Shown: positions 6,538 to 15,707 of the stretch, one piece after another
Position numbering within the stretch: the first letter of the stretch is position 1
How the letters are laid out: each line of letters begins with the position of its first letter
Assembly: GCA_034435055.1 (NCBI GenBank)
Contig: DAOTXS010000065.1
Span: 1 to 64,000 of the forward strand
Origin: Anaerolineae bacterium
GTDB lineage: Bacteria; Chloroflexota; Anaerolineae; UBA4142
Direction of reading: 5' to 3'
Length of the DNA: 64,000 bases
Made by a program: the position numbers and the translations under genes
Notes under the pieces: model-generated
The model's input: the letters and a program-made list of their open reading frames with translations, nothing else
What the model was told of the DNA's origin: nothing
Databases searched by the model: none

Positions 6538-8526
6538 TTGAAACCTATGAATTCATCCTCTTCTCCCCTAAAGAATGTATCGCTTGCGACAATATTTTCC
6601 GCGCTCGTTCCCGGCGCGGGACAATTCTATCTGGACAAGCGCGGGCGCGGCGTCGGAATTTTTTCCGCGCTGGTGGTGCTTGCGTTTCTCATCCATTGGG
6701 CGCTCGATAATTTCAAGGTCGGTACGGTAACGGCCGGTGCGATAGTAACAAGCTGGCTCTACGTTCCGCTCGCGCTCTTTTGGTTGTGGAATGTGATAGA
6801 TGCTTACCGGCTTGGGCGGGGTGAACGTTCGCCCGCGTTAATTGCTTACCTGATGGCGGCGATCATTATCTATTCCATCGGTTGGCAAGTAACCGATGTT
6901 AATCTGGATCGCCTGGTCAATCGATTCCAAGATATTCAAGCCGTTTCGCGCGCGCTCTTCGCCCCCGACCTCTTTGCGCGCGATGAAAAAGGCAATTGGG
7001 GTCCCAGCGAAAATTTCGGCGAGATTATCGGCAAAATTGCCGACCGACCTGCGCCGGAATTTTTGGTAAACCTAGGCTTGTTTCGAAAAGAAGATGTTGT
7101 CCCCACGCCGATTCTCGGCAAGATGGCGGAAACGATTGCCATCGGTTTGATGGCAACACTCCTGTCAACGATCTTTGCACTCCCGCTCAGTTTTCTTGCC
7201 GCGCACAATATTATGGCGCGCCTTCCCGGCGGCACGCTGATCTATTACGTGATGCGCGCATTCTTGAACTTTGTTCGCTCGGTGGACACACTGATCTGGG
7301 CAGTCATTATGGTCGTGTGGGTGGGGCTGGGTTCATTTGCCGGCGTTCTCGCGCTGACGATTCACTCGATTGCCGCGTTGGGCAAATTGTATTCGGAAGA
7401 GATCGAGCATATTGACCCAGGTCCCATTGAAGCGATTACGGCAACTGGCGCGAATCTGCTCCAAGTTATTCGTTATGCGGTGATTCCGCAAATCATTCCG
7501 CCGTTTCTCGCCTTCACCTTGTTGCGTTGGGACATTAATATGCGGACGGCGACCGTTGTCGGTCTTGTTGCCGGCGGCGGCATCGGCTTTTTTGTAGTCG
7601 AGACGATTCAAAAAGGTGGCTATGAACAATACGCGGCGGCGTTGTGGGTCGTCGCTATCGTTATCATTCTGGTGGATTATATTAGCGCGCGGTGGCGCGA
7701 ACGAATTTTGATTGGCGACACCACTGTTGCCGTTGCTACACCCAAGCCATTCTATCGTTCGCCGCGCACGATGTTCTACATTTTGCTGGCGCTGGTATTG
7801 CTCGTTGCCAGTTATCAACTGTCCGGCATCGAGCCGCGCAAGATGTTTGAACCAGCACCCACCTTTGTCCGACTGGTAGGCGATTTCGTAACGATTGACC
7901 TGACGCCCGCGGTGTTGAACAACGTGATCAAGCAAATGCTGGTTACGTTGTTCCAAGCTTTGCTCGCGACGACGTTGGGTGGCATCGTCGCGATTCCGTT
8001 CAGTTTTCTTGCCGCGCGTAATTTGATGGGCGGCAATCTGCTCTCGCTCGTGATTTATTACGTAACGCGCGGCACGCTCAATGTCTTGCGTTCGATTGAG
8101 GCGTTACTCTACGTCTCCATCTTCCTGATCTGGGTTGGCGTGGGACCGTTTGCTGGAATGTTGGCGCTGGCGATCACCTCCTTCGCGCTGATCGGCAAAC
8201 TATTCTCGGAGGCAATCGAGAACATTGATCCAGGTCCGATGGAAGCCATCACAGCGACCGGGGCGACACCTTTGCAAACCATCGTCTATGCGATTTTGCC
8301 ACAAATCATTCCGCCGTTCGTCTCGTACTGGATTTATCAATGGGACATCAACGTGCGGATTTCGACGATTGTTGGTTTCGCCGGCGGCGGTGGCGTCGGT
8401 TTGTTGCTCAACAATTACTTTGGTGTTTTGCAATATCACAAAGCCGGCACCGTGGTTGCGATCATCGTGCTTGTCGTGACGATAATGGACTTTGCGAGCG
8501 CGAAGATTCGGGAAAAGATGGTGTAA
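6538..8526 (+). CDS. phnE: Phosphonate ABC transporter permease, fused duplicated PhnE, with an N-terminal TM2-like domain
   Basis: Two PhnE-type permease repeats, each carrying the EAA-like ...IDPGP(I/M)EAITATGA... loop. An N-terminal ~100 aa region has the PGAGQFYL...NVIDAYR motif. Confidence 0.8.
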   Translation: MKPMNSSSSPLKNVSLATIFSALVPGAGQFYLDKRGRGVGIFSALVVLAFLIHWALDNFKVGTVTAGAIVTSWLYVPLALFWLWNVIDAYRLGRGERSPALIAYLMAAIIIYSIGWQVTDVNLDRLVNRFQDIQAVSRALFAPDLFARDEKGNWGPSENFGEIIGKIADRPAPEFLVNLGLFRKEDVVPTPILGKMAETIAIGLMATLLSTIFALPLSFLAAHNIMARLPGGTLIYYVMRAFLNFVRSVDTLIWAVIMVVWVGLGSFAGVLALTIHSIAALGKLYSEEIEHIDPGPIEAITATGANLLQVIRYAVIPQIIPPFLAFTLLRWDINMRTATVVGLVAGGGIGFFVVETIQKGGYEQYAAALWVVAIVIILVDYISARWRERILIGDTTVAVATPKPFYRSPRTMFYILLALVLLVASYQLSGIEPRKMFEPAPTFVRLVGDFVTIDLTPAVLNNVIKQMLVTLFQALLATTLGGIVAIPFSFLAARNLMGGNLLSLVIYYVTRGTLNVLRSIEALLYVSIFLIWVGVGPFAGMLALAITSFALIGKLFSEAIENIDPGPMEAITATGATPLQTIVYAILPQIIPPFVSYWIYQWDINVRISTIVGFAGGGGVGLLLNNYFGVLQYHKAGTVVAIIVLVVTIMDFASAKIREKMV

Positions 8527-8546
8527 CGAGTTGTCATTTGGTGGCA

Positions 8547-8583
8547 GGGCATTCGTGTACGTTTGCGAATGCCCTTTTCTTTT
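8547..8583 (+). terminator. Rho-independent terminator after the phn operon
   Basis: GGGCATTCG...CGAATGCCC stem followed by TTTTCTTTT. Confidence 0.75.
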
Positions 8584-8773
8584 GGGGATTGGTTGGCAGT
8601 AAGAAAGTATTCGCTAACGGAATATCATGTATTTCTGGGACACGCAATTAAATTTTTTGCAATTCTTGTCTGATTGTGTTATAGTTATTGTGCAAACTTA
8701 TTCTTTGACCCGCGGGCTGCGGATATGAGTAACTGACTGATCGCTGATTCACTCTTTTCAATAGGAGAATACG

Positions 8774-10492
8774 GTGATCGACTATTGCTCGTGCGGCGAG
8801 TTTTTGATTTCCCAAGCGCCCGTCACCTGGGATGCGCTCTTGCGCGCCGGGGTGACGGGTGTTGTCTTTTTTGCAACAATTGCGAATAATCGAGTTGATT
8901 TTGAAGACGCAATCAAGCCGACCGATCCCAAGTCTTCGATGACGCGGAGCGAAAAACTGATTTTTTGGGGAGGCATATATTTTCTTGCTTTCTTATTTAG
9001 TGTTGTGGGTTGGTTCGTCCTTGCGTTCCTCGCATGGTACGTCAAGCGCATACCTGAACGGCGTTTGCCAATGACGAGTTTGTTGACCGGGAATCAAACA
9101 AAATTTTATGATTGGCTAAGTGATTTTTTGTGGAGTTGGCTAAAATCATCAATCTTTTGGACGCCTATCTTTGGGATTGGTGAGATGATAATTGGTGTGT
9201 TACTAGGATTCGTGCTTAGTTTCTTTGGATACCCCGCAACTGCTTTATTATTAAATCCTCTTTTTCTTGTAAGCGTGGCGTATATGACAGTTGTTATCGC
9301 CATTCTCTATTCACTCAGCAATACTATCTTCTTCAATTGGAAAGCACTATTTTGGCAAGCTGAACCGGCGGCTCGATTGCTTGTTGGGAATGAAAACTAT
9401 GACATAATGACCGACGAAGAAAAGGAAAATGTCAAGCGGAATGTTGTCGACTCGCAGGTGGGAATAAATAAGGCGACAATCGTTGTGGCTGGCGGTAAAA
9501 TTCAGACGCTCAATCCCCCGGCGGGTAATTTAGCCCGGTTTGGTGGGCCAGGCGTCTTGATTGTGCAGGAGGGGCATGCGGTTGTCCTTGAACGAGGCGG
9601 ACGTCGTTCGCGTATCGTCGGGACAGGTGTATGGCATTTAGGGATGTTCGAGCGGATTAACACGATTATTCCTCTGGCTCAACGCACTGTTAATATCGAA
9701 GTCGAAAACGTGGTCACGGAAGATCATGTGCTGGTCGACAAGATTAAACTCCTGGCGTTCACTCGTTTAGATCCCGGAGACAAATCGCACAAGAACGGAG
9801 ATTATCCCTTTGACGACAAGGTGATCAATGATTTGGTTTGGTCGCCCAAATTAGGACCTGAAGTTTATGATTGGTCGAGTGCGGTAAAAAGTGTTGCCGA
9901 TACGGCGATACGTGATATGGTCGCAAGATTGAAGCTCGATGAATTGATTCTCGCGTCAGGTCAAGCACGCGACACCTTGCGAACCAATCTCAAGGACGCA
10001 ATCAATCGCATTACCAAAGATAAACTGGGAGTAGCGGTCAGTAGTGTGGTCATTGGCGAAGTTGTTATCCCAGATGAGGCACGGCAAAAATTGCTTGAGC
10101 GTTGGCTTATGGATTGGGAAGCCCAAATCGCGCAGGTCAGAGCAACTGTAACTGTATCTCAGGCAGAAGCGGATAAACGAGCTCACATTGCGCGAGGCGA
10201 AGGTGAACGCGAATATCTGCGAAAACAAGGTGAAGGGAAAGCCCTAGCTGTGCGTGAAGAAAATTTGGCAAAAGCCGAAGGAGAATCTGAGATAATCCGT
10301 CAATTCTTGTTGGCGTTAGCCCAGTTGCCAATTAACGAAGAGCGCAAAGCCGATCTTGTCAAAACATTACTTCAAGGTGAGCAATACCGCGATGCGATGC
10401 GGATGTGGTCAAGCATGGGACGCTCTGCCCGAGGTGCAGGATTCCGAAACGTTGATGGTGGAGACAGCGGTACTGCGGCTACTGAACCATAA
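8774..10492 (+). CDS. Polytopic membrane protein with a C-terminal SPFH/band-7 (flotillin/stomatin-like) domain
   Basis: About four N-terminal TM helices. The SPFH core runs IVVAGGKIQTL...RTVNIEVENVVTEDHVLV, followed by a charged coiled coil (ARGEGEREYLRKQGEGKA). Lower GC than the flanks. The GTG start is uncertain; an internal ATG at MTRSEK... is an alternative. Confidence 0.65.
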   Translation: MIDYCSCGEFLISQAPVTWDALLRAGVTGVVFFATIANNRVDFEDAIKPTDPKSSMTRSEKLIFWGGIYFLAFLFSVVGWFVLAFLAWYVKRIPERRLPMTSLLTGNQTKFYDWLSDFLWSWLKSSIFWTPIFGIGEMIIGVLLGFVLSFFGYPATALLLNPLFLVSVAYMTVVIAILYSLSNTIFFNWKALFWQAEPAARLLVGNENYDIMTDEEKENVKRNVVDSQVGINKATIVVAGGKIQTLNPPAGNLARFGGPGVLIVQEGHAVVLERGGRRSRIVGTGVWHLGMFERINTIIPLAQRTVNIEVENVVTEDHVLVDKIKLLAFTRLDPGDKSHKNGDYPFDDKVINDLVWSPKLGPEVYDWSSAVKSVADTAIRDMVARLKLDELILASGQARDTLRTNLKDAINRITKDKLGVAVSSVVIGEVVIPDEARQKLLERWLMDWEAQIAQVRATVTVSQAEADKRAHIARGEGEREYLRKQGEGKALAVREENLAKAEGESEIIRQFLLALAQLPINEERKADLVKTLLQGEQYRDAMRMWSSMGRSARGAGFRNVDGGDSGTAATEP

Positions 10493-10529
10493 AGTATCCA
10501 ATCCCATTGTATTCTTTTGGGGAGGAACT

Positions 10530-11563
10530 ATGAGCATCATCAAAGATTGTCCCAATCGTGCCCAGTGCATTATTGATCTGTTATCGCGACGCGTTGAAGA
10601 AAGAAAAGGCGTTGCGTGGACCGCGCTTCTTTCCGAGGGTCAAAATCTTTGCAATGCCAGAAATGAAACGAGAGCTTTACAAAGTTTCGAACAGTCGCTC
10701 AAACTAAGTGATGATCTTGCCGCCGTGAATGACAAGGATGCTAATCGACTCAAGGCAACGGCGCTGACGTGTATTGGGGCTCTGGGTTTGTGTAAAAACG
10801 AAATCGGTAGCGCTATCGTACGTTTTCGTCAAAGCGCTAGTATTTTTAATGCCGATGGTGATCATTATGGTGAAGCCGTTGCTCTCTTTGCCCTAGCGCA
10901 AGCCTATGAGGCGCGGAAAGAGTGGCGCGAAGCGTTCCGAAATTACGAATGGAGTCAGCGCGCGCTATCACACATTAGCAGTGATTCTGCAACAATCTTT
11001 TTGCGCCAATTGGTCGAAAAGCACCACGGTGAAGCCATTAAGGAATGGGAAAAGATGCCCGAAGTCGTTCAAGCACCGCAGGGAACACTCGGCTTTCTTC
11101 CGATTTTCAACCGGATTCCGGCCGGCGACCCGCGTTCTATTTCTGAACAACCAACTGATTATGTAGAAACAGACCGTTTAATTATTGCCGACAAGCCGTA
11201 TTATGTCGTAAATAAAGATTCATCCCGGCTTCGTCTTACTTTCTCAATCGACAAAGCGTACATCGCTTTTCGTGTTGCTGGCGATAGTATGAATAATGCG
11301 GGAATTGACGACGGTGATTACGTAATTTTGAGAACGAATTCGGTGACAGGCTCCGAGCCGGTGCCAGAAATCGGTGATATTGTTGCGATTGTATTTCCGG
11401 ATGATAATGTTGTCACGCTTAAGCGATATCGCCGGAAAGGCACGCAAGTGGTTTTTGAACCCGATAGCACTAATCCCAGTCACAAGCCCTTTCAGTTTGA
11501 CAAAGCTAGCTCCGGTTTCCCTGGTAAGATTGTTGGAATTCATATAGCAACATTAAAGCCGCT

Positions 11564-11567
<4 letters not shown>
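10530..11567 (+). CDS. TPR-repeat protein fused to a C-terminal S24 (LexA/UmuD-like) self-cleaving peptidase domain; no HTH
   Basis: S24 motifs VAGDSMNNAGIDDGDYVIL (Ser nucleophile) and VTLKRYRRKGTQVVFEPDSTN (Lys base). The N-terminal ~200 aa are TPR-like helical repeats. Start moved to the ATG at 10530, preceded by GGAGGA. The tabulated ORF starts at 10356, inside the previous gene. Confidence 0.65.
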
Positions 11568-12448
<881 letters not shown>

Positions 12449-12497
12449 CTGCAACCTGCAACTTGAAACCTGTGACCTGAAACTTGGAGCTTGAATG
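12449..12497. repeat. Heptamer tandem repeat x7: CTGCAAC CTGCAAC TTGAAAC CTGTGAC CTGAAAC TTGGAGC TTGAATG
   Basis: Read directly. The final unit contains the ATG of the next gene. Confidence 0.8.
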
Positions 12498-13160
12498 TCC
12501 GATCCCCTCGCACTCGTTCTCGCATTTCTCTACGTCTCGATCATCCTCGCGCTTGGCGAAGGTTTGCGGCGCGGGCTAAAACTCAGCGTCGAGTTCACAC
12601 GCAAGTTTGTGCACATCGGCGTGGGAATGGTGTCGTTCTTGCTCGTCTGGCTTTTTCAAGCGTGGCAATGGGCAATCATTCCGCCGCTCGCGTTCATCGT
12701 CATCAATTACATTTCGTACCGCCGCCAGATTTTTGCCGGAATGGAAACCGGCGAACGCGGGCAACTGGGTACCGTTTACTTTCCAATTTCTTTTGCGATT
12801 CTGATTCCGTTGTTGTGGTCGATGCCCGCGTTGCTTGTTGCCAGTTTAATGCCGATGACGTGGGGCGATGCGTTCGCGGCGATCATCGGTAAACGATTTG
12901 GCGCGCGCAACTTTACGATGTTGGGACACACGCGGTCGATGGAAGGCTCGGCGACGATGTTTGTGTTCAGTTTCGTTGCGACGTTTCTTGCGCTCGTTGT
13001 CTTCGCCCAGCCGATTGTCACAAGTCTCGTACTCGCGCTGGTCGTTGCCATCGTCGCAACCATCGTCGAAGCGTTCTCGCCGTTTGGCATCGATAATCTC
13101 ACCGTGCCGTTGACATCGGCGATTGTGTTGATTTTGTTGAACGGCGTCATCGGCAAATAA
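12495..13160 (+). CDS. Integral membrane protein of the CTP-dependent dolichol kinase / phosphatidate cytidylyltransferase-like (DUF92) family
   Basis: About six TM helices and a GDAFAAIIGKRFG motif; the family assignment is tentative. Confidence 0.5.
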   Translation: MSDPLALVLAFLYVSIILALGEGLRRGLKLSVEFTRKFVHIGVGMVSFLLVWLFQAWQWAIIPPLAFIVINYISYRRQIFAGMETGERGQLGTVYFPISFAILIPLLWSMPALLVASLMPMTWGDAFAAIIGKRFGARNFTMLGHTRSMEGSATMFVFSFVATFLALVVFAQPIVTSLVLALVVAIVATIVEAFSPFGIDNLTVPLTSAIVLILLNGVIGK

Positions 13161-13196
13161 AAAAATCGCCAGCGCATCTCGCTGGCGATTTTACTT

Positions 13197-15707
13197 TTAT
13201 CCCGTCGTGATTGGCGCGGATGGCGTTTCGATTGGAATCGATTGCTCCGCCGACAGTCCTTCTTTTTTGCGAAACACAATTCCCTCGCGTTCGGCCGCAT
13301 CGATGACGACACAATCACCGGCTTGAAATTCCTTCTCCAACAATTTGCGCGACAACGGCGATTCGACTTTGCGTTGAAGTGTGCGACGCAACGGACGCGC
13401 GCCAAACTGCGGATCGAATCCTTCTTTTGCCAACCACTCGCGCGCGGCGTCGGTCATTTCGATTTCGATGTTGTGTTCCTTCAAGCGTTCTGCAATCTCT
13501 TGCATTTGCATATCGACGATGCTCTTGATTTGCTCGCGGTTGAGAACGTGAAAGATAATTACTTCGTCGATGCGATTCAGAAATTCCGGGCGGAAGGTTT
13601 GCTTGAGCGACTCTTCGATTTTTTCGTACCCCTTTTCCAATTTCTTGTCGCCCTGACCGTTGTGGGGTCGAAAGCCAAGTGTGCCGCCCTTTTGCGCAAA
13701 CTCTGTGCCGATGTTCGAGGTCATGATGATGACCGTGTTGCGGAAATCGACGATGTGTCCTTGCCCATCGGTCAAGCGTCCGTCTTCCAAAACCTGCAAC
13801 AACGTATTCCAAACTTCGGGATGCGCTTTTTCGATTTCATCGAACAGAATCACTTGATACGGTCGCCGCCGCACCGACTCGGTCAGTTGTCCGCCTTCTT
13901 CGTAACCGACGTAACCCGGCGGCGCGCCGATCAAACGCGAAACGGTGTGACGTTCGCGATACTCGCTCATGTCGACGCGGAAAAGTGCGTCCACATCGTC
14001 GAAGAGAAATTCTGCCAACGCTTGTGCGAGCGCGGTCTTGCCAACGCCGGTTGGGCCCAGGAAAATAAACGAACCGATGGGACGTTTGGGATCAGCCAGT
14101 CCGGAACGCGCGCGGCGAATTGCATCGCTGATCGCGTTGATCGCTTCATCCTGCCCAACGATGCGTTTGTGCAATTCGGTTTCCATCTGCAACAATTTTT
14201 CCGATTCGGTTTGCATCATTCGCGCGACCGGAATGCCCGTCCATTTGGCGATGATTTCGGCAATGTCGTTTTCATCGACGACTTCATCGAGGCCCTGTTC
14301 TTTTTGCCACGCCGCGCGTTTGGTTTCGTACTCGGCTTCGAGGGCAAGCCGCTCGGCGCGCGCTTGCGCCGCCGCTTCGTAATCGCGTTTGCTCCACGCG
14401 ATCTCTTCTTGCTTTTGCAAATCATTCAGCCGCGCCTTTTCCGCTTTCAATTCCGGGGGCATCGAAAAAATGGCGACACGCACTTTAGCCGCCGCCTCAT
14501 CGATCAGGTCGATGGCTTTGTCCGGCAAATAACGATTCGAAACGTACCGTTGCGAAAGTTTCGCCGCCGCGTCGATGGCGTCATCTTTGATCTTGACTTG
14601 ATGATGCTGTTCGTAGCGGTCGCGCAAGCCGTGCAACATTTGGATGGTCGCATCGACGTCCGGTTCTTCGACGAAGATTGGCGAAAAGCGGCGTTCCAGC
14701 GCGGCATCCTTTTCGATGTGGTTGCGGTACTCGTCGAGTGTCGTCGCACCGACGCATTGCAGTTCGCCGCGCGCGAGCGCCGGCTTGAGCATGTTCGATG
14801 CATCGATGGCACCCATCGCCGCGCCGGCGCCGACGACGGTGTGCAATTCGTCGATGAAGAGAATGATCTCGCCTTTCGCGTTGTGAATTTCATCAAGTGC
14901 CGCTTTGAGGCGTTCTTCAAATTCGCCGCGAAACCGCGAGCCGGCAACCATCGCACCCAGATCGAGCGCGACGACGCGTTTGCGCATCAACGGCTCCGGC
15001 ACGTCGCCGGCGATAATTTTTTGCGCCAGCCCTTCGACAATCGCCGTTTTGCCGACCCCCGGCTCGCCGATCAAGACCGGATTATTTTTCGTGCGGCGCG
15101 AAAGAATTTGAATCACGCGTTTGATTTCGTCATCGCGTCCGATCACCGGGTCAAGTTTGCCTTCCCGCGCGAGCGCGGTCAAATCGCGCGAATATTTTTC
15201 GAGTGCGCGGTACCTGCCTTCCGCGCCGGGATCGGTTACGCGATGCCCGCCGCGAATTTCCGGAATGATTTGCAGAATGCGTTCGCGTGTAAGCCCCAGC
15301 TCGCTCAAGATGCGCCCGGCGGGTCCCTCGCGGTCGGTTGATAGTCCCAGTAAAAGATGTTCGGTCGAAACGTACTCGTCTTTGAGCCGGGTTGCTTCTT
15401 CGTTCGCGGCGTCGACGATGCGTTTGACGCGCGGCGTGATATACACTTGCGCTTGGGAACCGCTGGCGTACGGCGTGTAATACCGCGCGGTGTTGCCTTG
15501 CAACGCTTCGTCGATCCGATGCCGCAACGCATCCGCATCGATGTTCGCGCGGTCGAGAATTGTTTGCACCGCGCCGCCGGTCTGTTCGATGAGCGCCATC
15601 AATAAATGTTCAGCATCGAGTTGGGTATGACGATACCGTTGAAGGATTTCGTGCGCGCGCGCGAACGCATCTTGCGCGCGTTCGGTAAATCGATCAAATC
15701 GCATCAT
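13197..15707 (-). CDS. clpB: ATP-dependent chaperone ClpB
   Basis: Clp N-domain, two AAA+ modules (GEPGVGKT; GPTGVGKT) and a long coiled-coil M-domain; 836 aa. Confidence 0.9.

Follow-up and report, generated by a model that had tools for sequence, protein, structure and literature searches.

A 64,000-nucleotide stretch of Anaerolineae DNA (assembly GCA_034435055.1, contig DAOTXS010000065.1, positions 1 to 64,000; this whole stretch is referred to as the window) encodes a protein in which a helical domain of tetratricopeptide-like repeats (TPR) precedes a peptidase domain of the LexA/UmuD type (S24). The gene for this protein, here termed TPR-S24, lies directly downstream of a gene for a membrane-anchored SPFH/Band-7 protein. 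We propose that TPR-S24 acts as a TPR adaptor that cleaves itself and thereby regulates a defense- or stress-like module scaffolded by SPFH, applying the logic of LexA to a protein target, and we place the probability of this reading at roughly one half. The textbook examples of regulated self-cleavage are LexA, UmuD and phage cI, and, to our knowledge, all characterized repressors of this family act on DNA. Together with its SPFH neighbor, TPR-S24 looks like an undescribed SOS-style proteolytic switch acting on proteins, not on DNA; no description of TPR-S24, of SPFH with S24 or of TIR-S24 was found in the full-text literature, and TPR-S24 is described by no model of PADLOC or NCBIfam. If the proposal is true, the S24 switch would be a general, portable post-translational trigger, given that the cleavage machinery is found on TPR, SPFH, TIR, CHAT and death-like adaptors. 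For bacterial SPFH cages, of whose functions little is understood as yet, it would mean a new kind of proteolytic partner and possibly a role in immunity.

TPR-S24 is a real, conserved gene and not a chance open reading frame. A search of 5.8 billion clustered proteins returned about 18 full-length homologs of 345-360 residues with 40-92% identity, and those that bear an organism name are proteins of Chloroflexi/Chloroflexota metagenome-assembled genomes. Scanning metagenomes with the alignment of the close relatives added two further full-length loci only. When 1.84 billion representatives were searched with a profile, 59 matched with E≤1e-30 and 1,273 with E≤1e-10; the 78 representatives of 320-420 residues among the 150 matches listed form, with the window protein, a wider set of 79. 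Viral contigs contained matches to the S24 domain only and no full-length relative. Thus, the TPR-S24 family is not phage-borne.

The C-terminal half of the protein matches Peptidase_S24 (PF00717, residues 192-326) in Pfam with E=1.9e-12 and 47.3 bits against a cut-off of 23.3, and a sequence search of the PDB with the whole protein returned LexA catalytic domains. The AlphaFold2 (AF2) model, built on an alignment of close homologs, has a predicted local distance difference test score (pLDDT) of 79.7 and consists of helices at residues 10-175 (pLDDT 85-92), a low-confidence linker and a beta domain. On comparison with the PDB by Foldseek, the C-terminal half superimposed on LexA (3k2z, 7b5g) and lambda cI (1kca), and the N-terminal half on MamA, consensus TPRs (CTPR), kinesin light chain (KLC), RapI, SycD, Hop TPR2A (TM-score 0.65) and T-MOD (TM-score 0.76). 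In the window protein the Pfam match to TPR_12 at residues 92-144 (E=1.8e-5, 25.3 bits) falls under its cut-off of 30.1, as do those to TPR_2, TPR_7 and TPR_1 in the same region. Among 17 close relatives, however, TPR_12 was found in 16 at E≤1e-3 (best 1.2e-7) and TPR_2 in 13, and across the wider set Peptidase_S24 is present in all 78 representatives and TPR_12 in 26 (best 1.5e-21). An earlier note on this DNA, made from the letters alone, had described an S24 LexA-type peptidase domain preceded by about 200 residues of TPR-like helices where LexA has its helix-turn-helix (HTH), and had suggested searches with both profiles; sequence and fold comparisons bear out both halves of that description. 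The cleavage motif, the SPFH partner, the cassette and the breadth of the clade described below go beyond it. Two cysteines on one TPR helix, C81 and C88 (LTCIGALGLC, window positions 10770-10793, residues 81-88), do not vary among the 17 close relatives, and C81 is also present in a TPR-SPFH fusion described below. A redox or metal role for them is possible.

The S24 domain is nearest to LexA, and relatives of TPR-S24 carry the automatic JGI label "SOS-response transcriptional repressor LexA", which would fit a transcriptional repressor related to LexA whose DNA-binding domain is cryptic and highly divergent. We regard such a repressor as extremely improbable. No HTH family was found by Pfam in the window protein even at E≤10, and profile searches found neither an HTH family nor LexA_DNA_bind in any of the 17 close or 79 wider relatives. 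The N-terminal region is by profile and fold an eight-helix TPR solenoid with a near-neutral isoelectric point of 5.7-7.7. The NCBIfam LexA equivalog TIGR00498 aligns with the C-terminal part of the protein alone, reaching 55.3 bits against a cut-off of 110.95. The SOS-box motif GAAC-N4-GTTC does not occur near the cassette and is rarer in the window than expected by chance, although this motif is of the Gram-positive type and may not fit Anaerolineae. A divergent HTH in the N-terminal region was rejected on the profile searches and the TPR fold. Since it lacks an HTH and scores under the equivalog cut-off, TPR-S24 is not LexA. The "LexA" labels on HTH-less relatives in JGI/IMG (P0001, P0007, P0013, P0016, P0017 and others) are a systematic misannotation, which affects dozens of metagenomic proteins; some other relatives are labeled "phage repressor protein C with HTH".

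Inspection of the alignments revealed an intact catalytic apparatus. Ser253 and Lys298, the dyad that the earlier note had taken to be conserved, are invariant across 17 homologs with 40-92% identity, as are Ala198 and Gly199. In the N-terminal half A49, D62, L63, C81, C88, W132 and W173 are likewise invariant in this alignment. Among the 79 wider relatives Ala198 and the serine are invariant, and Gly199 and the lysine are each present in at least 90%. The family profile aligns Thermotoga maritima LexA at the cleavage-site strand and the catalytic core, which places the predicted scissile bond, Ala198-Gly199 in the motif IPAGDP, at the LexA cleavage region that the earlier note had hoped to locate by such an alignment. 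The profile consensus of the strand is "lPifgkiPAGdP" against "IPLIGEIRAGEK" in T. maritima LexA, where RAG marks the matching residues. Between the cleavage site and the catalytic core, the family has about 19-20 more residues than LexA, and the distance from Ala-Gly (AG) to the serine has a median of 56 residues in the clade, compared with 32-40 in matches that combine an HTH with S24. A regular expression recovered AG, Ser and Lys together in 108 of the 124 clade representatives with a G-x-S-M motif. By all criteria that can be read from sequence, TPR-S24 is a member of peptidase family S24, and its self-cleavage is predicted. Four proteins (P0020, P0064, P0098 and P0070) contain two or three S24 domains in tandem; the upstream copies lack the catalytic lysine, with TLRR or TLQR for TLKR, and the last copy is intact.

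We identified the product of the gene upstream of TPR-S24 as a membrane-anchored SPFH protein. It matches Band_7 in Pfam with E=2e-14 and has three N-terminal transmembrane helices by hydropathy, and its AF2 model shows transmembrane helices and an SPFH domain, together with a helix of 83 residues and a tail that is disordered. By Foldseek, the model is similar to the cage subunits of erlin, HflK/C-FtsH, prohibitin, QmcA-YbbJ, stomatin and flotillin at E of about 1e-9. The start of the gene is ambiguous between GTG 8774, which has AGGAG 7 nucleotides upstream and gives 572 residues, and ATG 8939, which gives 517 residues; most orthologs start at the equivalent of ATG 8939, before which no obvious Shine-Dalgarno sequence is seen. 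The stop codon lies 37 nucleotides before the ATG of TPR-S24. From tblastn searches and called-gene tables, an SPFH-like gene was found directly upstream of TPR-S24 at every locus with a readable flank. This adjacency spans four unrelated gene neighborhoods (A to D, Table 1), among which the identity of the S24 proteins is 30-70%. Neighborhood C is a four-gene operon that ends in a distant TPR-S24 relative (L007/L008, 1812-7155; L010/L011, 1656-7116; L098).

Pairs of an SPFH protein and a protease are recurrent, and the partner found here matches the QmcA-YbbJ and HflK/C-FtsH structures. Together with the strict SPFH adjacency and the established intermolecular cleavage by UmuD, this is consistent with a trans-acting processing protease, in which a TPR-docked S24 domain would cut the SPFH partner or a TIR protein in the manner of STOPP/NfeD or of FtsH held by HflK/C. 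The protein nevertheless bears its own invariant Ala-Gly site, whose distance to the serine is conserved, and where SPFH is fused to S24 the AG is found within the linker joining them in one chain. The C-terminal tails of the SPFH orthologs are variable, with no conserved AG or other common motif, and Pfam finds no NfeD or S49 domain in the peptidase. On account of its own invariant site and of SPFH tails that lack one, we disfavor the trans-acting protease and consider it quite unlikely. The SPFH tail had also been a candidate for the docking site of the TPR domain and was dropped, the tails being variable and one variant carrying a TIR domain there instead.

Domain fusions elsewhere in the clade connect the same parts covalently. 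Three proteins (P0107, P0194 and P0098) consist of an SPFH domain of the window type (E of about 1e-13), about 60 disordered residues, the motif EIAAGK and an S24 domain, without TPR. In a ThsB-like TIR protein fused to S24 (P0019), the S24 domain is 50% identical to that of the window and has the same AG site. At locus L130, the slot between SPFH and psuG is occupied by a 464-residue protein, whose N-terminal domain resembles the window TPR domain (hhalign probability 86%, E=4.7e-6) and is followed by a transmembrane segment and a weak SPFH match. Further architectures are TPR, coiled coil, S24, TRADD-N and EAD7 (P0082), TPR, S24 and CHAT (P0184), and trypsin, pentapeptide repeats and two S24 domains (P0070). 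Every pairwise combination of TPR, S24 and SPFH thus occurs as a fusion, which is the strongest computational indication that TPR, S24 and SPFH act together; it also points to the TPR domain as a non-covalent counterpart of the covalent SPFH-S24 link. We infer that the TPR domain works by protein-protein contacts and not by binding DNA, a view strengthened by the obligate SPFH neighbor and by the SPFH-S24, TPR-SPFH and TIR-S24 fusions.

TIR genes recur in the cassettes of relatives (L004-6, L124 and L128/129). In L004-6 the TIR gene separates SPFH from S24. Another, which has a TPR tail and keeps the motif S-x-Y-C-x-x-E, lies 18 nucleotides upstream of the gene for P0066, a protein 30% identical to that of the window. 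In the pair L128/129, the S24 protein is 92% identical to the one in the window and the flank from psuG to clpB is 95.8% identical in DNA. Here an extra gene between S24 and psuG (L128, 1139-2806; L129, 1113-2780) encodes a protein with transmembrane segment, SPFH domain and a TIR domain of the CAP12/Pycsar type (PF10137, E=2.5e-37). The contig apparently breaks inside a first SPFH copy, and the first 66 nucleotides of L128 match the window sequence that comprises the SPFH gene's 3' end and the spacer. The extra SPFH-TIR gene beside 95.8%-identical flanks indicates that genes are gained or lost inside the cassette at the strain level. A further set of genes is found upstream of the SPFH/TPR-SPFH pair in L130 (1-5004), which encodes a CHAT/AAA_16 protein, a 924-residue STAND-like protein with AAA_16 and TPR, a radical-SAM enzyme and a 42-residue open reading frame. 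This region has the appearance of a conflict-system island that includes a module for peptide modification.

In the mechanism that we propose, TPR-S24 would be a cytoplasmic protein of four TPR-like hairpins, a flexible linker and an S24 domain that carries its own substrate, the Ala198-Gly199 bond, beside the Ser253/Lys298 dyad. It would act as the dedicated partner of a membrane-anchored, cage-forming SPFH protein, the two genes making up the cassette. In the intact state, the TPR domain would tether a presumably dimeric S24 domain to the assembly of SPFH proteins or, where a variant has a TIR effector, to that effector, and the system would rest. Self-cleavage at Ala-Gly would then be permitted by a signal of stress or infection, which may be RecA* or a cue from the membrane or from pH. 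This would part the S24 core from the TPR adaptor, and the SPFH or SPFH-TIR assembly would change its state. A more specific form of this proposal is that SPFH and TPR-S24, with or without TIR, KAP or CHAT, constitute an unrecognized immune or abortive-infection family, in which the SOS-type S24 switch has moved from a DNA operator to a protein target and the adaptor silences an SPFH cage or TIR NADase until autoproteolysis is triggered by infection or damage, for example through RecA*. We put this forward tentatively, as a possible but less than likely extension. If true, S24 domains with the long spacer would serve more broadly as portable cleavable linkers, through which a wide range of effectors is armed.

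Several observations weigh against the regulatory proposal. The window's own cassette contains neither a TIR domain nor any other recognizable effector, and its neighbors are housekeeping genes (phn transporter, psuG, clpB) and not a classical defense island. Searches of PADLOC-DB v2 assigned the S24 and SPFH proteins to no known defense family. Cleavage, binding and phenotype are all computational predictions, and the dimerization of S24 and its response to RecA* are assumed by analogy with LexA and UmuD. The close relatives all belong to a single order, Anaerolineales, and the synteny therefore reflects relatedness in part. In addition, the SPFH-TIR variant of L128 is without the C-terminal helices that were first considered as the TPR docking site.

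An effectorless cassette among housekeeping genes, with clpB nearby, could instead belong to a housekeeping pair for membrane stress or quality control, in which the SPFH cage organizes membrane proteins and TPR-S24 is an accessory whose self-cleavage sets turnover. The absence of a PADLOC match and of full-length relatives on viral contigs agrees with this. We judge it unlikely, as the recurrent TIR insertions and fusions, the links of the clade to CHAT, EAD7/TRADD-N and KAP, the gain or loss of genes between strains with near-identical flanks, the atypical base composition of the cassette and its several genomic locations all speak against such a pair. In the PADLOC-DB v2 searches the S24 protein reached a TPR model at E=0.01 only, the SPFH, psuG and membrane protein gave no match, and the TIR proteins of relatives alone matched the ThsB, Aga-TIR and SAVED-TIR models.

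We compared the regulatory proposal with systems of known function. TPR-S24 shares with LexA, UmuD and lambda cI (MEROPS S24) the fold, the Ser-Lys dyad and an Ala-Gly bond in a strand-loop N-terminal to the core, so placed that cleavage would part an N-terminal functional module from the C-terminal core. It differs in having an eight-helix TPR domain in place of the winged HTH, in the longer spacing from AG to Ser across the clade and in its genomic partner, which is an SPFH membrane protein and not an SOS gene. With stomatin-STOPP/NfeD (QmcA-YbbJ) and HflK/C-FtsH it has in common the pairing of a protease with a cage-forming SPFH membrane protein, the two being encoded together and presumably working together. 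STOPP is a stomatin-specific protease with a Ser-Lys dyad, encoded beside archaeal stomatin. The peptidase described here, however, is of the S24 type and not a ClpP-like S49 peptidase or the AAA+ protease FtsH, is without the OB domain of NfeD and without a transmembrane segment by hydropathy, and bears its own cleavage site; its docking would be through the TPR domain.

The ImmR/ImmA, CapH/CapP and DdrO/IrrE systems, which are proteolytic de-repression switches of mobile-element and defense loci, follow the same logic, in which a regulator is proteolyzed in response to stress and a defense or stress output is thereby released. In those systems a separate metallopeptidase cuts an HTH repressor and the effect is on transcription, whereas TPR-S24 is predicted to cleave itself and has no DNA-binding domain. 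Thus, any control that it exerts would be post-translational. Relatives of TPR-S24 carry ThsB-like or CAP12/Pycsar-type TIR domains, as in Thoeris ThsB, CBASS Cap12 and Pycsar PycTIR, and the CHAT, trypsin and EAD7/TRADD-N domains of relatives, together with filamentous Chloroflexota as hosts, recall the conflict systems of multicellular bacteria. The window cassette differs from these systems in that it contains no TIR, ThsA, cyclase or STAND NTPase. The EAD and TRADD-N domains were defined, and Band7-like scaffolds in conflict systems listed, by the Aravind group in Kaur et al. 2020 (PMC7159879) and 2021 (PMC8195603), neither of which mentions S24 or LexA. Finally, the distant TPR-S24 relatives of neighborhood C lie in operons with a KAP NTPase that resembles QatA of QatABCD (E=8e-24). 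The score nevertheless falls far short of the QatA cut-off, those operons lack the remaining Qat components, and no KAP gene is present in the window.

The cassette is delimited in base composition as well as by predicted signals (Table 1). Its guanine-cytosine (GC) content is 44-49% (about 8500-11560), compared with 53% in phnE and 58-59% in psuG; it falls from 53% to 44-47% at the upstream boundary hairpin, and the second step coincides with the junction of S24 and psuG. The low GC content with sharp edges suggests that SPFH and TPR-S24 were acquired horizontally.

Table 1. Features of the SPFH/TPR-S24 region in the window, and gene neighborhoods of the cassette among relatives.
Feature	Position	Strand	Details and basis
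Intrinsic-terminator-like hairpin after phnE, upstream cassette boundary	8546-8575	+	12-bp stem and T-run
Candidate sigma-70-like promoter	8656-8685	+	TTGCAA-17-TATAGT with TG extension; consensus scan only
Partner gene, membrane-anchored SPFH/Band-7	8774 or 8939 to 10492	+	Pfam, hydropathy, AF2, Foldseek
Shine-Dalgarno sequence of TPR-S24 gene	10520-10525	+	GGGAGG; read from sequence
TPR-S24 gene	10530-11567	+	345 residues plus stop; ATG start
TPR-like helical repeat domain	10557-11054	+	Residues 10-175, eight helices; AF2, Foldseek, TPR_12 in relatives
S24 (LexA/UmuD-type) peptidase domain	11094-11564	+	Residues 189-345, including cleavage-site strand and loop; Pfam, sequence and fold matches
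Predicted self-cleavage site, Ala198-Gly199	11121-11126	+	IPAGDP; LexA-type motif
Codon of nucleophile Ser253	11286-11288	+	GDSM (GDSMN in window); invariant
Codon of general base Lys298	11421-11423	+	TLKR (TLKRY in window); invariant in close relatives
psuG-like gene	11564-12448	+	Indigoidine_A family; start overlaps S24 stop (GTGA/TGATG)
Bidirectional terminator-like hairpin	13162-13192		Perfect 13-bp stem, T-runs on both strands
Neighborhood A: phnDCE - SPFH - S24 - psuG ... clpB			Window, L001-3, L004-6, L012, L095, L096, L131
Neighborhood B: TetR/ABC, optional Phd, SPFH - S24			L009, L014, L015
Neighborhood C: KAP NTPase - SPFH-like - SPFH-like - S24			L007/8, L010/11, L097-99
Neighborhood D: glycosyltransferase - SPFH - SPFH - S24 - PfkB kinase			L016

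A scan for hairpins found no terminator between S24 and psuG, and psuG is probably co-transcribed with the cassette. The stop of S24 overlaps the start of psuG not only in the window but also in L001, L004, L095/96 and L131. In L130, psuG (8375-9301) follows the SPFH/TPR-SPFH pair, and in L016 a PfkB kinase (7775-8689), whose best NCBIfam match is pseudouridine kinase at E=1.7e-51, begins 1 nucleotide after S24. These arrangements raise the alternative that the peptidase is tied to pseudouridine or nucleotide catabolism through a translationally coupled psuG. We think this very unlikely: psuG follows the cassette in neighborhood A and L130 only and does not occur in the TetR/ABC and KAP neighborhoods, the step in GC content lies precisely where S24 meets psuG, the SPFH-TIR gene parts S24 from psuG in L128, and the score of the L016 kinase is far below the pseudouridine kinase cut-off. 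Membership of psuG in the module is doubtful, and as a core component it was rejected, being missing from three of the four neighborhoods and beginning at the GC step. The pseudouridine-catabolism-like genes beside the cassette may mark an insertion hotspot or a real link.

Rfam gave only chance-level matches on 8300-13300. After psuG, the window encodes a 221-residue polytopic membrane protein (12495-13160) without an NCBIfam match. The bidirectional hairpin that ends the plus-strand unit sits between this gene and the convergent clpB. The membrane protein is 78-84% identical in L004 and L012, and is far better conserved than the cassette.

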